A stretch of DNA of 64,000 bases from assembly GCF_041886205.1 (NCBI RefSeq), contig NZ_CP169029.1. One strand, given 5' to 3'. This DNA is from Escherichia coli (GTDB taxonomy: Bacteria; Pseudomonadota; Gammaproteobacteria; Enterobacterales; Enterobacteriaceae). Below the pieces are notes generated by a model. It was not told where the DNA came from. It saw only the letters and a program-made list of their open reading frames with translations, and searched no databases. Shown one piece after another: positions 4,901-15,525 of this stretch (positions within the stretch are counted from its first letter, which is position 1; the number at the start of each line of letters is the position of its first letter). The position numbers and the translations under genes are program-made.

Positions 4901-5115
4901 CACTACCTCAGGTAGATGATGAGATCAGATACAGGGATCAACTGACGGTGAGCGCAGGCCCGCGAGTGCCCTGATTTAGCGCTGGTTTTGCTTTCCCATC
5001 GAAGGGCCCATACATCATCACGCCCGCGAAACAGTCGACAAAATAACGCAACTTTCTCATCCGTGGATAATACGGAAACGCACTGCACAGGACTCTGCGG
5101 TTTACGTCACCATTC
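4901..5115 (-). pseudogene. N-terminal fragment of an unidentified island gene, cut off at the IS2 end
   Basis: Minus-strand ORF ...VQCVSVLSTDEKVALFCRLFRGRDDVWALRWESKTSAKSGHSRAC... ends with a stop 3 nt before the IS2 IRL; second frame ORF 4938..5132 overlaps. Confidence 0.3.
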
Positions 5116-5328
5116 AATCCCATAAGCTTCAAGTTATGTTTGCCCTCAGTGCAGCTAATTCATCACTGTCAGATTTATGAACCATAGTCGTTACCTGTAT
5201 CCGATCCACTGAGGCACCACGGCAGAAATTCGGGTCCCCTACACTGATGACAAAGCCGCCCTCTTCTGCCTATTAACTCAAGCACCTCCCAACAACTTAC
5301 AGAAACTTAATCCTAATACAACTGTAAT

Positions 5329-5892
5329 TCAGTTGTGTCGTGGTCGGCCGCGGTTGCTTTTTTCGGGAAGCCTGCTACGGCCCAGAATAATACCGTGTTC
5401 TTTCTGATCCTGTTTAGCCAGATAGCTAAGGGCGTAACGTAAGTTGTCTACCGCGGACTTATCACTATAGTGCATCACGTGATCGATACGCACCGGGTAT
5501 TTGTCTTTAGCCCGGCAAAGGTGAAAGTAACCCTCCCCTTCCGTGATCTGCCTCCAGATATCTCCCAGTTGCCTGGATATCTGATAAGAGTTCTTGTGAC
5601 GTTGCCCATCCAGGTAGCCGACAAAATGAATATGAAGCCCTTTGTTTTGTGTATATTCCATTACCCAGTAATATCCCGCCAACATCGATTGGGTTTCGCT
5701 AAGTAAGCGGTATATTTCCATACACATACTGTGCTTACAGCCATGACCAAAACTGGGCGTGTCTTTCCTGTAGGCAAAATCAATTCTGAAAGGTAACAGT
5801 TTAGAAAAACGTTGAAACAGACCTTCCATGTGTTCATTCACGTCTTTCAGAATCATGAAGTCCATTTCGTAATTGGGATTAGCATTATACAT
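5329..5892 (-). CDS. YagK/YfjJ-family (inovirus Gp2-like) cryptic-prophage protein
   Basis: 187-aa ORF in same orientation as alpA and the split gene, matching CP4-57-type gene order (alpA - yfjI-like - yfjJ-like); family assignment from recalled sequence similarity only. Confidence 0.4.
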   Translation of the reverse strand: MYNANPNYEMDFMILKDVNEHMEGLFQRFSKLLPFRIDFAYRKDTPSFGHGCKHSMCMEIYRLLSETQSMLAGYYWVMEYTQNKGLHIHFVGYLDGQRHKNSYQISRQLGDIWRQITEGEGYFHLCRAKDKYPVRIDHVMHYSDKSAVDNLRYALSYLAKQDQKEHGIILGRSRLPEKSNRGRPRHN

Positions 5893-7202: not shown

Positions 7203-8541
7203 CATAAGCGCTAACTTAAGGGTTGTGGTATTACGCCTGATATGATTTAACGTGCCGATGAATTACTCTCACGATAACTGGTCAGCAATTCTGGCCCATA
7301 TTGGTAAGCCCGAAGAACTGGATACTTCGGCACGTAATGCCGGGGCTCTAACCCGCCGCCGCGAAATTCGTGATGCTGCAACTCTGCTACGTCTGGGGCT
7401 GGCTTACGGCCCCGGGGGGATGTCATTACGTGAAGTCACTGCATGGGCTCAGCTCCATGACGTTGCAACATTATCTGACGTGGCTCTCCTGAAGCGGCTG
7501 CGGAATGCCGCCGACTGGTTTGGCATACTTGCCGCACAAACACTTGCTGTACGCGCCGCAGTTACGGGTTGTACAAGCGGAAAGAGATTGCGTCTTGTCG
7601 ATGGAACAGCAATCAGTGCGCCCGGGGGCGGCAGCGCTGAATGGCGACTACATATGGGATATGATCCTCATACCTGTCAGTTCACTGATTTTGAGCTAAC
7701 CGACAGCAGAGACGCTGAACGGCTGGACCGATTTGCGCAAACGGCAGACGAGATACGCATTGCTGACCGGGGATTCGGTTCGCGTCCCGAATGTATCCGC
7801 TCACTTGCTTTTGGAGAAGCTGATTATATCGTCCGGGTTCACTGGCGAGGATTGCGCTGGTTAACTGCAGAAGGAATGCGCTTTGACATGATGGGTTTTC
7901 TGCGCGGGCTGGATTGCGGTAAGAACGGTGAAACCACTGTAATGATAGGCAATTCAGGTAATAAAAAAGCCGGAGCTCCCTTTCCGGCACGTCTCATTGC
8001 CGTATCACTTCCTCCCGAAAAAGCATTAATCAGTAAAACCCGACTGCTCAGCGAGAATCGTCGAAAAGGACGAGTAGTTCAGGCGGAAACGCTGGAAGCA
8101 GCGGGCCATGTGCTATTGCTAACATCATTACCGGAAGATGAATATTCAGCAGAGCAAGTGGCTGATTGTTACCGTCTGCGATGGCAAATTGAACTGGCTT
8201 TTAAGCGGCTCAAAAGTTTGCTGCACCTGGATGCTTTGCGTGCAAAGGAACCTGAACTCGCGAAAGCGTGGATATTTGCTAATCTACTCGCCGCATTTTT
8301 AATTGACGACATAATCCAGCCATCGCTGGATTTCCCCCCCAGAAGTGCCGGATCCGAAAAGAAGAACTAACTCGTTGTGGAGAATAACAAAAATGGTCAT
8401 CTGGAGCTTACAGGTGGCCATTCGTGGGACAGTATCCCTGACAGCCTACAAAACGCAATTGAAGAACGCGAGGCATCGTCTTAACGAGGCACCGAGGCGT
8501 CGCATTCTTCAGATGGTTCAACCCTTAAGTTAGCGCTTATG
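7203..8541 (+). mobile_element. IS186 (IS4 family), complete 1339-bp copy
   Basis: 23-bp terminal inverted repeats CATAAGCGCTAACTTAAGGGTTG at 7203-7225 and 8519-8541 (rc); flanked by 11-bp direct duplication GGAAATATCCC at 7192-7202 and 8542-8552 in a GGGG-N6-CCCC target. Confidence 0.85.
7252..8370 (+). CDS. insL: IS186 transposase (DDE, IS4 family)
   Basis: 372-aa ORF with C-terminal YRLRWQIELAFKRLK motif typical of IS4-family transposases; lies between the IS186 inverted repeats. Confidence 0.85.
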   Translation: MPMNYSHDNWSAILAHIGKPEELDTSARNAGALTRRREIRDAATLLRLGLAYGPGGMSLREVTAWAQLHDVATLSDVALLKRLRNAADWFGILAAQTLAVRAAVTGCTSGKRLRLVDGTAISAPGGGSAEWRLHMGYDPHTCQFTDFELTDSRDAERLDRFAQTADEIRIADRGFGSRPECIRSLAFGEADYIVRVHWRGLRWLTAEGMRFDMMGFLRGLDCGKNGETTVMIGNSGNKKAGAPFPARLIAVSLPPEKALISKTRLLSENRRKGRVVQAETLEAAGHVLLLTSLPEDEYSAEQVADCYRLRWQIELAFKRLKSLLHLDALRAKEPELAKAWIFANLLAAFLIDDIIQPSLDFPPRSAGSEKKN

Positions 8542-10284: not shown

Positions 10285-10593
10285 TTATCTGCTCATGGTC
10301 ATATCTGAAGAAAGCGTATGTCGCACTTCGTCATTAACACCTTTGACTGCTGATCTGGCAGGTACAGTATGTAAAGTAAGCCATTCGTCAATAGCTGATG
10401 AACGCCAGCCCACAGAACCACTACCAAGACGTACCGGCCTGGGGAAGGTTGCATCGTAGTATTTCGATAACGGATTCATTTTTTCGTAAATTGTCGAACG
10501 AGATATACCTAACAATTGGCTCAGTTCAGGCATCCGTAAGATGCGTGAAGGAGTCCAGCAGTATCCGGATTGATCTGGCATTTTATCCCCCAT
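10285..10593 (-). CDS. alpA: AlpA-family phage/island HTH regulator (start codon uncertain; alternatives at 10581 or 10665)
   Basis: Contains ILRMPELSQLLGISRSTIYEKMNP...YDATFPRPVRLGSGSVGWRSSAIDEWL, matching the AlpA signature (YDATFP...SVGW...EIDEWL). Confidence 0.6.
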   Translation of the reverse strand: MGDKMPDQSGYCWTPSRILRMPELSQLLGISRSTIYEKMNPLSKYYDATFPRPVRLGSGSVGWRSSAIDEWLTLHTVPARSAVKGVNDEVRHTLSSDMTMSR

Positions 10594-10789
10594 AGTGTGG
10601 TGAACTGTCGTTACAGTTTGTATTCCCCGGGTAAATTTGTCTGCGTAAAAAAATGGGCTGAGCAAAAAGACAATAAATAATTAAAAATCAATACGATAGA
10701 AAACAACAGCATTATTGTTATTTTACTTTCACCTTATCGCTGTCGATTCTCATTATCATTCATTGGTAAAAAACAGCAAAAGAGGCCCT

Positions 10790-11553
10790 GGTAATGACTC
10801 CAGTCAGTAGTACAGTGTTTTCGACAAATGAACCAATGGCTTTTCGTGAATTTCCAGGGAGCGTGAAAAGCAAATCGTTTTCCGGGCTGGTCGTTTGATG
10901 TGAGTACGAAGTGTCAGATTGTTGCACTCAATGCGCCGGGTAAATATCTTGCCGACAAGATGCTTATCCTGTGGCATTTCTCTGGTATAACTGCTCCGGT
11001 TGTCTCTGGTTATCATGCCTGTGGAGAATGGCTTCAGGAGTTCCGGCAACTCACGACATGTTTCATCAGTGCGAGGACCAAAAGTGTAAGCCAGCACACC
11101 TCCAGATTTGGTGTTATACGCATACCAGTGCCACTGCTGACGAGCTTTGTTTTCGACAAAACTCCATTGTTCATCAAGTTCGCAGATAAGCGTCACATCG
11201 GCACTGGCGACTGGAGATGTGGTTACTTTGCGTGGTGAGCGTTTTATAAAGTGAGAATGACGGTGTTGATATCCACCTTCAGCGTTCTGGAACTATCGCG
11301 AACCCCGACTCCGTTATGAACCATTTCAACAATTTGCTCTTTAATGCCTGGTTTTCGGGTTTCGTAGATGTAATTCAGTTGAAATACACACGTTTGCAGG
11401 ATTAGCACTGGAAACGCTCATGATCTGAGGTGCTGTGATCATAATGGTACACTTTATAGGAATTACAGCTGGGAGAATGTACTGTAACTGTTGCCATATG
11501 GTCTCCAGATACCAATAGAATACCACATTAATCTATCGTCAGAAGGCATCACC
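10790..11553 (-). mobile_element. Degenerate IS1-family element (764 bp; insA frameshifted, insB N-terminal region degenerate)
   Basis: Terminus GGTAATGACTCC at 10790; ORF 10804..11196 matches IS1 InsB C-terminal half (QWHWYAYNTKSGGVLAYTFGPRTDETCREL...KTICFSRSLEIHEK); manual translation upstream gives InsA-like MATVTVHSPSCNSYKVY... then, after a frameshift, LNYIYETRKPGIKEQIVEMVHNGVGVRDSSRTLKVDINTVILTL; other terminus ...GCATCACC at 11546-11553. Confidence 0.65.
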
Positions 11554-11693
11554 GGGGCCTTCTGACATAATCTGTTAATACGTGTACTATTACCCTGTTC
11601 AGAAAATATTGATTCAAAAATGAAAACCAGTTAACAGAAAAGCAAAATGATATAATGTTAAAATTTTATATAGTGCAATAAAAGGAGAATGTT

Positions 11694-13511
11694 ATGTATA
11701 ATTTTATCACTATAATGTATGATGTCTTTTCATGTTTTGGTGTTCTGGCTAAAAACCAGAATACCCGTGACATCCGAAATATTAAAAATTTTTCCTCACA
11801 TCAATATTCACTGGGCGACATGTTTGATGAATTAATAAACATTATTGATAAAGAACAAGTATTGAGTACAGAACAACGAAAAGTTATATTTAGGAGATAT
11901 GAAGATCTCTATGTTAAGCTAATGCACTATTCTGTTTTTACAGACCAAACACATCAAATAATAAAACAAAAATATTTTAATGACATTGTACCAATGATTC
12001 TCGCACTCGACATCAGGAACACATATCGCCCGGATAATGAGATGGCATTTTACTATCATATTCATTCTTTTCTCACTCAGATACCGGATAATGAGGATGA
12101 TATATATCATGCTGCAAGGACATATCTGCGAAATTACGTTAAGTTATGTTTATCCGGATACACACCAGCGAATGCGCATTTCAAAGATATCTTTGATGGC
12201 GTATATGAATTCATTCGTAATATTCGCAAAAACAGTACACCAGGAAAAACAAAACTTATCGCAACTATCAACACATGCAAAGAAACCTGTAAACATCTGC
12301 TTTATTTAAGTAATGAAGACAAGGAAAAAATAATTTCTGACTTAGATAAAGTTCAGGTTGCATGTTATTATCTCACTATATTACTGGCTTTCGAAAGACG
12401 AACTTCATTAACAAGCACCCTGGCAACTTTATATAAAATGCTGATAAGCGAAAGAGAAGTTTCAGAATATGAATGCCAGTTATTATATTTAACCAACCCA
12501 ATAGATGTAATGAATATACTGAACAAATACATATATTACTTTCCTAATGAAAACTCACCATTTTATACACTGAAAATTGACAGTGCATTATCGTGGGATG
12601 CCATTGACGCAATACGAGACTATAGTATTTCTGATATTTATCTTTATCCTGAACAAAAAACAATAAATTGTGTCGTTGAGATTGAAAACATTGTCTTTGG
12701 CGGTTACATTTATACATTGAACAACGGCGTCACATTACAAAACATAGAAAACACTTTAAAAGATTCTTCATGCCATTATGTCTTAAATGGCTATACAGAA
12801 TTTGTTAACTGTTTGATACAACTTACTTCAGGAAAGACTGAAAGTGTTCATCGCACCATCAATAAACTGAACTATGAGAAATTACCTTTTGGATTTATCA
12901 TTGCCGCGTTTGCTATACTAAAGATAGCATTTAAAATAAAATTCAGTAAAAATCATGTAAATATCCGAGCATTATTAAATGACATCAATTATTTTATGAC
13001 TTATCAGGGCGAGTCCATTAACCTTATTTCACTGGATCACGAATACCCAGAGTCCTGTCTTCAAAATGACACAAACACATATTTATTAGGAAGAGTAATA
13101 TTTCTGTATAACTCAATGATTTATAAGTTCATAAACTGTCAGGAACATGAAACCAATAACATTCACTCAGCTATGATAAATAACCTATTACAGGAAGTTG
13201 ATATAGCCCTTGGTAAAATAAATAACATTATAGACAGCAGAAACATATCAGCCCCCCATGAACTGGCAAATATTCTTACCCGCGAAAAAATACTTACAAC
13301 ACGGGAAAAAAAAGGAAACCTGATAAGCCTGTTTGATGGATTCACTTTATTCCATTGTGTTGGAATGATAACCTTTCTTATCCATTATCTCAGAACACCT
13401 GAAGAAAAAGTTGAAAATATATTTATGTTATATGGTGCAGATAAAAACAATAAACTACGCAGAAGACTGATTTATGACGCACTAGGAATAATTCAGTCTC
13501 AGCAGGAGTGA
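11694..13511 (+). CDS. Hypothetical 605-aa protein, AT-rich cargo gene in the int-alpA hotspot; no recognisable catalytic motif
   Basis: Long uninterrupted ORF in very AT-rich DNA; SD aaaggaga 5 nt upstream of ATG; TATAAT at 11651-11656; convergent with integrase. Confidence 0.7.
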   Translation: MYNFITIMYDVFSCFGVLAKNQNTRDIRNIKNFSSHQYSLGDMFDELINIIDKEQVLSTEQRKVIFRRYEDLYVKLMHYSVFTDQTHQIIKQKYFNDIVPMILALDIRNTYRPDNEMAFYYHIHSFLTQIPDNEDDIYHAARTYLRNYVKLCLSGYTPANAHFKDIFDGVYEFIRNIRKNSTPGKTKLIATINTCKETCKHLLYLSNEDKEKIISDLDKVQVACYYLTILLAFERRTSLTSTLATLYKMLISEREVSEYECQLLYLTNPIDVMNILNKYIYYFPNENSPFYTLKIDSALSWDAIDAIRDYSISDIYLYPEQKTINCVVEIENIVFGGYIYTLNNGVTLQNIENTLKDSSCHYVLNGYTEFVNCLIQLTSGKTESVHRTINKLNYEKLPFGFIIAAFAILKIAFKIKFSKNHVNIRALLNDINYFMTYQGESINLISLDHEYPESCLQNDTNTYLLGRVIFLYNSMIYKFINCQEHETNNIHSAMINNLLQEVDIALGKINNIIDSRNISAPHELANILTREKILTTREKKGNLISLFDGFTLFHCVGMITFLIHYLRTPEEKVENIFMLYGADKNNKLRRRLIYDALGIIQSQQE

Positions 13512-13698
13512 AACGTTAAAACAGGCAAATTGTTTTTTATAAATAGGAGATTGTTGAGTAATCCCCTGTTTATAAAAATACGCTTTCCTGACGATCTGAT
13601 AATTATCAGCTCAATACATTTGACATAAAAGCGGTTCCTTAATTACTACTGCCACGATCACATATCAAATCATGATCGTACAATATACATTTTCACTA

Positions 13699-14901
13699 TT
13701 ATTTATTCACAATTTGAGACATCACATAATCCGCCCATGCCTGCATCATCGGTACACGCTGCTCCAGTAGATCAGTACGATGATATGCCGCCTCAACCTT
13801 ATTTTTCAGCGTATGAGCGAGCGCCCTTTCCGCCAGATCCCGCGAATACCCCTGTTCACTACACCAGTCCCTGAATGTTGAGCGAAAACCATGTGCCGTG
13901 GCAACTCGCCCCGGAATGTCACTGACGGCTTTCTTTTTACGCAGAAAACTTGTCAACACCATATCGGAAAGGATCTGCTGCTTTCTGGGTGAAGGGAACA
14001 CCAGTTCATCATGCAGGCCACGTATATTTTCCAGAATGTAAATAGCCTGCCGGGATAAAGGAACACGATGCTGTAGCCTGGCTTTCATTCTTTCTGCAGG
14101 TATAGTCCATACCCGCTTATGAAAATCAATTTCAGCCCAGCGCATTCCCCTGGCTTCGCCCGAGCGAGTTGCTGTAAGTATCACCATTAATAACAGTGCG
14201 CGGGTAACATTATAAGGTTCATCACTATACACACTGGTCGCCACAAAAAGCGGTAACTGCCTCCAGGGCATTGCTGGTTGGTGTTCATCACGTCCTCTTG
14301 TCTGCTGAGGAAGCAAATGGTCAACCACATCAACAGGATTTGCCACACAAAAACCGTGCGCCCATCCCCACTGCATAACAACATGAATGCGCTGTTTAAC
14401 CCGGCTTGCCGTTTCTGACAAGGTTAACCAGACTGGACGCAGTGTTTCTGCCACGTCCGCAGCCGTAATCGAATCCAGCGTTTTTGCTCCCAGTTGAGGA
14501 AACGCGTAATTCTCAAGCGTCGATAACCACTGCCTTACATGCTTTGGATTTTCCCATCCTGGAGACAATTCTGCATGTACACGCCTGGCTGCATCGGCAA
14601 ATGTTGGGATAACGACTTTCTCAGATTCAGCCTTTTTAATCTCCAGAGGATCATCACCTGCAGCAAGTTGCTCTCGCATTATCCGGGCAGTACGTGCAGC
14701 TTCAGCAATACTGACCTCTGGGTAAGTTCCCAATCCAGCATTACGTCTTTTTTGTGTCACCGGACTTACATAACGAAAAACCCATTTCCCCCGCCCCTTT
14801 ACTGAAGAAGGATGAAGGGTCAGTCCGGTAATTCCCCCATGGGGCAATGGTTTGTCATCAGGTTTGATATGTCTTGCTTTCGTATCCGTCAATACTGCCA
14901 T
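13699..14901 (-). CDS. int: Tyrosine site-specific integrase, P4/CP4-57 IntA-like
   Basis: 400-aa ORF; N-terminal LTDTKARHIKP...FRYVSP arm-binding-type region and C-terminal catalytic motifs (HGFRSTFRDW, LAH, Y in EAAYHR). Confidence 0.9.
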   Translation of the reverse strand: MAVLTDTKARHIKPDDKPLPHGGITGLTLHPSSVKGRGKWVFRYVSPVTQKRRNAGLGTYPEVSIAEAARTARIMREQLAAGDDPLEIKKAESEKVVIPTFADAARRVHAELSPGWENPKHVRQWLSTLENYAFPQLGAKTLDSITAADVAETLRPVWLTLSETASRVKQRIHVVMQWGWAHGFCVANPVDVVDHLLPQQTRGRDEHQPAMPWRQLPLFVATSVYSDEPYNVTRALLLMVILTATRSGEARGMRWAEIDFHKRVWTIPAERMKARLQHRVPLSRQAIYILENIRGLHDELVFPSPRKQQILSDMVLTSFLRKKKAVSDIPGRVATAHGFRSTFRDWCSEQGYSRDLAERALAHTLKNKVEAAYHRTDLLEQRVPMMQAWADYVMSQIVNK

Positions 14902-15044: not shown

Positions 15045-15525
15045 GATTTATTTCAGGCGGTCCCCCTCACCGCCATATTTAAAGAAGAGCTCGTACGAAA
15101 GTACGGGCTTTTTTTTCGTATATTGCACACACCGGGGGGATGAGAATCCCCGACCGGGGGTCGACAACTGGCGGCAGCCAGTTGGACAGACCGTGAACGC
15201 AGTGAGCGGGCTGCCCGCAGGGCGAGCGAAGCGAGTCAATCCCCCCCTCACCGCCATATTTAAAGAAGAGCTCGTACGAAAGTACGGGCTTTTTTTTTCG
15301 TATATTGCACACACCGGGGGGATGAGAATCCCCGACCGGGGGTCGACAACTGGCGACAGCCAGTTGGACAGACCGTGAACGCAGTGAGCGGGCTGCCCGC
15401 AGGGCGAGCGAAGCGAGTCAATCCCCCCCTCACCGCCATATTTAAAGAAGAGCTCGTACGAAAGTACGGGCTTTTTTTCGTGTATTGCACACACCGGGGG
15501 GATGAGAATCCCCGACCGGGATACT
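15045..15525. repeat. Tandem direct repeat array, unit about 181 bp, about 2.7 copies
   Basis: Units begin near 15061, 15241 and 15421 with near-identical sequence; each has a terminator-like hairpin plus T-run (gagctcgtacgaaagtacgggcttttttt) and hairpins GGGGAT-GAGA-ATCCCC and CAACTGGC-N4-GCCAGTTG (loop differs between copies, stem conserved). Confidence 0.9.

Follow-up and report, generated by a model that had tools for sequence, protein, structure and literature searches.

In the window, the 64,000-nucleotide stretch of Escherichia coli DNA analysed here, an IS1-family element lies on the minus strand between a divergently transcribed orphan gene for a 605-aa protein and a co-directional gene for an alpA-like HTH regulator, close to the P4-type integrase of a genomic island. 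The features are as follows.

10285–10581, minus strand: alpA-like HTH regulator, downstream of the element and co-directional with it
10782–10789, no strand: target-site duplication copy abutting IRR, GAGGCCCT
10790–11553, minus strand: the whole IS1-family relic, 764 bp, with IRL at 11553 and IRR at 10790
10790–10812, minus strand: right terminal inverted repeat (IRR), GGTAATGACTCCAGTCAGTAGTA, its first 13 nt equal to the IS1A IRR
11531–11553, minus strand: left terminal inverted repeat (IRL), GGTGATGCCTTCTGACGATAGAT, its first 10 nt equal to the IS1N IRL
11554–11561, no strand: target-site duplication copy abutting IRL, GGGGCCTT
11694–13511, plus strand: orphan 605-aa gene, 32% GC, divergent from the element
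13699–14901, minus strand: P4-type tyrosine integrase of the island

Read on the minus strand, the element starts with GGTGATGCCTTCTGAC, ends with CTGGAGTCATTACC and has the size (~0.77 kb) and the imperfect ~23-bp inverted repeats beginning GGT(G/A)ATG that are typical of IS1. The IRL tip (GGTGATGCC) is identical to that of IS1N and the IRR tip (GGTAATGAC) to that of IS1A; counted on the sequences, IRR and IRL match at 14 of 23 positions. After repair, the conceptual translation matched the Pfam domain DDE_Tnp_IS1 (PF03400, E=1.9e-54) and, in its insA part, HTH_Tnp_IS1 (PF12759, 1.1e-20) and Zn_ribbon_InsA (PF03811, 6.8e-12), and it scored 201 bits against NCBIfam NF033558, 'IS1 family transposase' (cutoff 100). 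The domain order is that of IS1, an InsA zinc ribbon and HTH followed by an IS1-type DDE domain, and membership in the IS1 family is far beyond chance. The coordinates, both inverted repeats and the domain matches agree with an earlier note, made from the sequence alone, which had described a full-length IS1-family copy of 764 bp at 10790–11553. The short direct target duplication (8–9 bp) expected of IS1 is present in imperfect form, GAGGCCCT and GGGGCCTT matching at 6 of 8 positions (P ~0.004 at fixed positions), which is consistent with an aged insertion. Among the IS1N-type copies that were fetched, two had 8-bp duplications and a third had non-matching flanks. RefSeq labels the identical sequence 'IS1 family transposase; frameshifted; internal stop'. 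The relic is thus an ordinary dead IS that public annotation already flags as a pseudogene; a description of it was not found in the literature on SpLE1, IEE and IS1N.

Lesions in insA, the frameshift site and insB

The coding parts of the relic are arranged as follows.

11223–11497, minus strand: insA remnant, from ATG (11495–11497) to the original TAA (11223–11225)
11241–11250, minus strand: former -1 frameshift site, now TTTATAAAAC
10804–11292, minus strand: insB reading frame, open for 162 codons to TGA (10804–10806)
10813–10844, minus strand: insB 3' end with 1-bp deletions in the A-runs at 10841–10844 and 10818–10821 and one in CACATG (10813–10817)

In insA, Cys8 of the zinc ribbon is replaced by Ser (TCT, 11474–11476), a TAA occupies codon 32 between the second cysteine pair (11402–11404), and a GT expansion adds 2 bp at codon 38 (~11387–11388). 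The frameshift site reads TTTAAAAAAC in Sakai, in the diverged island of an E. coli draft genome (L011) and in IS1N; here, an A to T change at 11246 turned the slippery TTAAAAAAC into TTATAAAAC, by which the A6C run was lost and a second TAA arose in the insA frame. The 0/-1 phase of insA and insB' is kept in the relic, and the A6C motif that is mutated here is intact in Sakai, in L011 and in the inferred ancestor. With a stop at codon 32, a +2 frameshift and a slippery site that is destroyed, the window allele cannot make InsA or InsAB'. An uninterrupted insA, a working slip site and a complete insB', as expected of an active IS, were not found together in the relic. The stop and frameshift that the earlier note had claimed in insA are therefore real and were understated, since the slip-site TAA and the loss of Cys8 come in addition, and its word 'inactivated' is borne out by these multiple disabling lesions.

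The insB frame is far better preserved. Its 5' part, KRSPRKVTTSPVASADVTLICELDEQW, aligned in frame with KLTPKRITSPPVAHADVALICELDEQW of IS1N, and residues D, D and E aligned to the conserved DEQW, SDDW and RIER motifs are present (GAT 11173–11175, GAC 11002–11004 and GAG 10927–10929); we take these three motifs to hold the catalytic triad. The N-terminal region of insB, which had been called degenerate, is thus in frame within 162 open codons, and the damage is C-terminal: the 3' deletions, net -3, scramble about eight C-terminal residues (EKPLVHLSKTLYY vs EKVIGTFIEKHMFY in IS1N). In addition, an alignment of 61 intact IS1-family transposases has 93 columns with a conservation of 97% or more, and the window copy deviates at 17 of these. 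An Arg to Cys replacement just after the conserved E is found only in this copy. A Trp to Arg replacement in SDDW was considered as a further disabling change and dropped, since Arg also occurs there in several annotated full-length homologues.

Orthologous copies and drift in E. coli

Megablast against 5426 complete E. coli genomes returned the element from 1111 of them, with one chromosomal copy in nearly every case. The 1114 matching records include 79 weaker partial matches to a different relic, and the same relic at the same site is present in about 1,030 of the 5,426 genomes. Flanks and relic co-occurred at about 1:1 (flanks in 1036 records, relic in ~1035), and queries of joined flanks (600 nt and 187 nt) against the 5,426 complete genomes detected contiguous flanks, that is, an empty site, in 0 of 1036 records. 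The sole partial match to a joined-flank query, WB61, still contains the relic, next to other IS damage. The relic thus occupies one fixed site per island, and the multiple or variable sites and empty sites of an active IS were not observed. The gene order, P4-type integrase, 605-aa gene on the opposite strand, IS1 relic, alpA and a DUF3987/YfjI-like gene, is common to C11, Nissle, Sakai and L011. The relic also lies beside the 605-aa gene in WB61 and in three short-flank alleles, and those three show alpA on the far side as well.

In SpLE1 of E. coli O157:H7 Sakai, the orthologous insertion has identical junctions and neighbours and is annotated as ECs_1301, a 'transposase' pseudogene. RefSeq also has 'IS1 family transposase' pseudogenes at this site in CFT073, Nissle 1917, C11 and others, and these orthologues, Sakai included, show 96.1–100% nucleotide identity. 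The relic measures 762–765 bp in all SpLE1-type alleles, and Cys8Ser, the codon-32 stop and the first A-run deletion are common to all six that were examined. The Sakai-type allele is free of the +2-bp insertion, keeps A6C and has an insB that runs out of frame through IRR, whereas the window/Nissle-type allele carries both extra insA lesions (+2 bp and TTATAAAAC) and has regained the original insB stop. In E. coli SCU-484 (L015, relic at 301–1065), the 5' half carries the window/Nissle lesions and the 3' half the Sakai-type substitutions, a mosaic that looks like recombination between island haplotypes inside the relic.

These alleles bear on the reading that the earlier note itself had set against its own, namely an intact known IS1 variant whose sole 'defect' is the programmed -1 frameshift. 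The full length, the recognisable inverted repeats, the open insB with D, D and E kept, and the Sakai-type TTTAAAAAAC would suit such a variant. Against this, the codon-32 TAA and Cys8Ser are present in 6/6 SpLE1-type alleles, to which the window adds the +2 frameshift and the lost slip site; all seven copies whose annotation was inspected carry the RefSeq pseudogene flag; and each island has one site, with no transposed copies. Judged from the letters themselves, this reading is already refuted, and we give it practically no probability.

A more distant orthologue was found in L011, whose diverged island lies beside a Clp-family AAA ATPase gene. There, the relic has identical junctions, is 90.4% identical, keeps Cys8, has no codon-32 stop and retains A6C, and it has lesions of its own, a 13-bp deletion and a D to E change at the SDDW-motif aspartate. 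Since clpA neighbours serW, the L011 island may, we assume, occupy the serW site. A second relic of the same IS lineage is present in 79 E. coli records (for example L004:2563–3251 in MIN10 and L005:3002–3148 in EC1515). Identity to the window relic is about 83% in the 3' part, the IRL and the 5' sequence of insA are closely related as well, and this copy too is a pseudogene. Its insertion site is not that of the window relic, and it is oriented differently with respect to alpA. It follows an alpA-like HTH gene and then a hypothetical gene, and is itself followed by another hypothetical gene and one of the GTPase family. The C-terminus is still IS1N-like (EKVIGSFIEKHMFC), but the slip site is destroyed, and 65 bp and 9 bp have been deleted. 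The second relic is an independent insertion.

With this second relic (L004) and IS1N as outgroups, an ancestor was reconstructed by parsimony. It has an intact 91-aa InsA, the slip site TTTAAAAAAC and an insB that is open up to the C-terminal frameshift, indicating that most of the decay was lineage-specific and followed insertion, and that some preceded the split. The ancestor already carries the C-terminal A-run deletion together with the replacements I160T, R200H and L204P, which, compared with the L004 copy, are derived states at positions otherwise at least 97% conserved. The C-terminal frameshift and these replacements suggest that the copy may have been defective already at, or soon after, insertion. 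The order of the lesions given here is that of the parsimony reconstruction and would follow from it.

The relic copies are in near-neutral drift. Between them, dN/dS was 0.63–0.80, and 0.5–1.0 for insB alone. The relic differs by 3.5% from that of Sakai, compared with 3.9–5.4% in other non-coding island DNA and 0.4–1% in flanking genes, and orthologues at the identical site in different island lineages differ by 3.5–9.6% within the relic. The insertion is old, as had been proposed from the sequence: same-site orthologues are 3.5–9.6% apart, the duplication has decayed to 6/8, and the 5,426 genomes hold no empty site. The same data bear on a non-autonomous element that could still be mobilised in trans by a resident IS1 or IS1N transposase. 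Its inverted-repeat tips are well preserved (IRR 13/13 with IS1A, IRL 10/10 with IS1N), but beyond the tips the repeats are strongly diverged from both IS1A and IS1N. Each island has the element at this single position only, although IS1 abounds in E. coli, and no empty site turned up in the genomes searched; mobilisation in trans is exceedingly improbable.

The island setting

The island around the relic has several features of its own. The DUF3987/YfjI-like gene is interrupted at 7204–8540 by 1,337 bp of inserted DNA, which C11, Nissle, Sakai and L011 lack. The insertion encodes a 372-aa DDE_Tnp_1 transposase (ORF 7252–8370); its size suggests an IS4-family element, presumably an IS186-like one. 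At 15062–15520, at the integrase-proximal end of the island, lies a 182-bp tandem repeat of 2.5 copies with 98% matches; two RtT-like Rfam matches remained below threshold (38 bits vs a gathering score of 45). The island here abuts a DUF2726 gene and phoH, not ycdT/ycdU. No tRNA gene was found within the 64-kb window; related islands are reported at tRNA-Ser genes. The 605-aa gene corresponds in Sakai to ECs_1300, annotated 'membrane protein', and we take it to fill the integrase-to-alpA slot that yfjH holds in CP4-57. No Pfam or PADLOC match was obtained for its product, whose homologues in a collection of 5.8 billion proteins form 22 clusters, all at 91% identity or more; none below 91% was available there to provide an IS-free outgroup site.

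The relic had been proposed to mark the boundary of a cargo region holding the 605-aa gene, so that it would be a recombination boundary and the low-GC block would have been brought in or delimited by the IS. This idea draws on the fall in GC from ~45% in the relic to ~29–32% across 11554–13698 and on the orphan status of the 605-aa gene, found only in this island family. However, the alpA-side flank is also AT-rich (33–35% GC, with 29% on the 605-aa side), and this AT-rich spacer on both sides indicates that the IS simply landed within an AT-rich intergenic spacer. When the window is aligned with C11, Nissle, Sakai and L011, neither IS end interrupts the collinearity in any of these four island variants, and similarity stops only ~5.5 kb to the left (window ~4950–5340) and ~3.6 kb to the right, past the integrase (~15136–15480). 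Neither a second IS copy nor a breakpoint at an IS end, as expected of a composite or cargo-bounding element, was found. A single IS copy with a matching 8-bp duplication on both sides indicates simple insertion and no composite or one-ended structure. Collinearity across both ends, the AT-rich flanks and the ~1:1 co-occurrence of flanks and relic thus contradict the proposed boundary, which we consider very unlikely; an IS beside a low-GC gene is no evidence of a cargo boundary.

A second possibility is co-option of the relic: between alpA and the divergent 605-aa gene it could act as a spacer, as an insulator or as a source of promoters, or it could supply an InsB-derived protein. A perfect 10-bp inverted repeat at 11538–11566 (GTCAGAAGGC, 9 nt, GCCTTCTGAC) crosses from IRL into the flank and gives a fold with z ~ -5. 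Its flank arm mirrors the IRL sequence, and the repeat is kept in SpLE1-type alleles. The inner arm is mutated in L011, which argues against selection on the palindrome; the palindrome may reflect similarity of the target to the IS end. This 10/10 palindrome, the full-length retention in ~1,030 genomes, the 100% conserved 140-bp spacer by IRL and the insB frame kept open, with an ORF of 130–162 codons, would all fit co-option. On the other hand, dN/dS of insB is 0.5–1.0, the divergence of the relic equals that of other non-coding DNA, alleles differ in frame-disrupting indels, and the L011 and L004 copies carry deletions. Promoter and terminator scans of the relic gave no matches above shuffled expectation, and no Rfam family was found in or beside it. 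Taken together, these findings make co-option highly improbable.

The spacer between IRL and the start codon of the 605-aa gene (11554–11693, 140 bp) is 100% identical in the window, Nissle and Sakai; divergence is 3.5% in the adjacent relic and 4–5% in other spacers. This identity more likely reflects constraint on the upstream region of the 605-aa gene than on the IS, and a regulatory role for the neighbourhood of the relic is conceivable. The island sRNA Esr41 was considered at the relic site and ruled out, as it maps elsewhere, between z1181 and z1182, far from the relic (PMC8565820).

An IS1N-related lineage

The relic is only 50.1% identical in nucleotide sequence to IS1A of E. coli K-12, with 37–41% amino acid identity, compared with 69.1% nucleotide identity to IS1N of Shigella dysenteriae, 70.5% to a Serratia symbiotica copy and 73.4% to its best relative in a plasmid collection, a Klebsiella IS1-family element. 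In a search of 5.8 billion protein sequences, the intact full-length homologues nearest to the relic InsB reached 72–77% identity; NCBI names the nearest proteins 'IS1N family' (72–75% identity) and 'ISEc30 family'. Reconstructed InsAB' is 74% identical to that of IS1N, and the best intact homologue reaches 77%. Between the reconstructed ancestor and IS1N, dN/dS was 0.08 with saturated dS (~1.85), the same value as between two intact IS1N-type copies, IS1N and that of Serratia (0.08). This low dN/dS indicates that the relic stems from a distinct, once-functional IS1 lineage. The divergence from canonical IS1 that had been pointed out is therefore real (50.1% to IS1A), but the distance is mostly a matter of lineage, not of decay.

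Canonical IS1, represented by IS1A, shares with the relic the family, the domain order, a similar length (768 vs 764 bp) and the IRR tip over 13 nt; at 50% nucleotide and 37–41% amino acid identity, a decayed IS1A was rejected. IS1N (iso-IS1 'nuxi', found in S. dysenteriae, Klebsiella and other Enterobacterales) is among the closest intact relatives, with 72% amino acid identity in InsB and an IRL identical over 10 nt. Like the relic, it has insA, an A6C slip site and insB', and its 765 bp and 8-bp duplications resemble the 764 bp and decayed 8-bp duplication seen here, but it is intact and multicopy, whereas the relic is dead and confined to a single site. By ISfinder convention, copies of the same IS share ~95% or more of their nucleotides. 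An IS1N isoform was ruled out at 69.1% identity to the S. dysenteriae element and at most 73.4% in the plasmid collection, and since 69–73% is far below isoform level, the lineage of the relic is separate from IS1N. No intact member exceeding ~77% InsB identity was found in the 5.8-billion-protein collection, where all proteins above that level are ORF fragments of this relic or of sister relics. In the plasmid collection, no element exceeded 73.4%, except records of the same relic and one unlisted, uninspected record at 80–90%.

The feature is thus very probably the fossil of an IS1N-related IS that inserted in an island spacer, then died and drifted almost neutrally, and is now immobile and functionless. 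A complete or nearly complete copy, presumably active, would have transposed into the AT-rich spacer that separates alpA from the divergent 605-aa orphan gene, duplicating 8 bp of the target. This spacer is part of the backbone, near the integrase, of a P4-type genomic island associated with tRNA-Ser, whose family includes SpLE1 (OI-43/48) in O157:H7 as well as the serX islands in CFT073 and Nissle. Having then lost transposition, the inserted element would have been carried passively with the island under nearly neutral drift. The window allele, unable to make InsA or InsAB' transposase, is therefore immobile and, as far as the evidence goes, without function. It is unlikely that more lies in the locus, either as a lineage known only from relics whose ancestor could perhaps be resurrected, or as a relic, spacer and palindrome that together regulate the 605-aa gene or alpA. 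The basis for resurrection would be the comparison of the SpLE1, L011 and L004 types of relic, which gives an ancestor with insB intact save for the C-terminal frameshift.

As a dead transposon hitchhiking in a well-known island backbone, the relic carries little biological weight. Its distance from canonical IS1, which is lineage and not decay, corrects a misreading of the locus. As a marker that is both stable and neutral, the relic helps to trace islands of the SpLE1 / serX-serW family, in which two haplotypes and at least one recombinant can be told apart by their lesions, and it documents an IS1N-related lineage that is now seen only as fossils.
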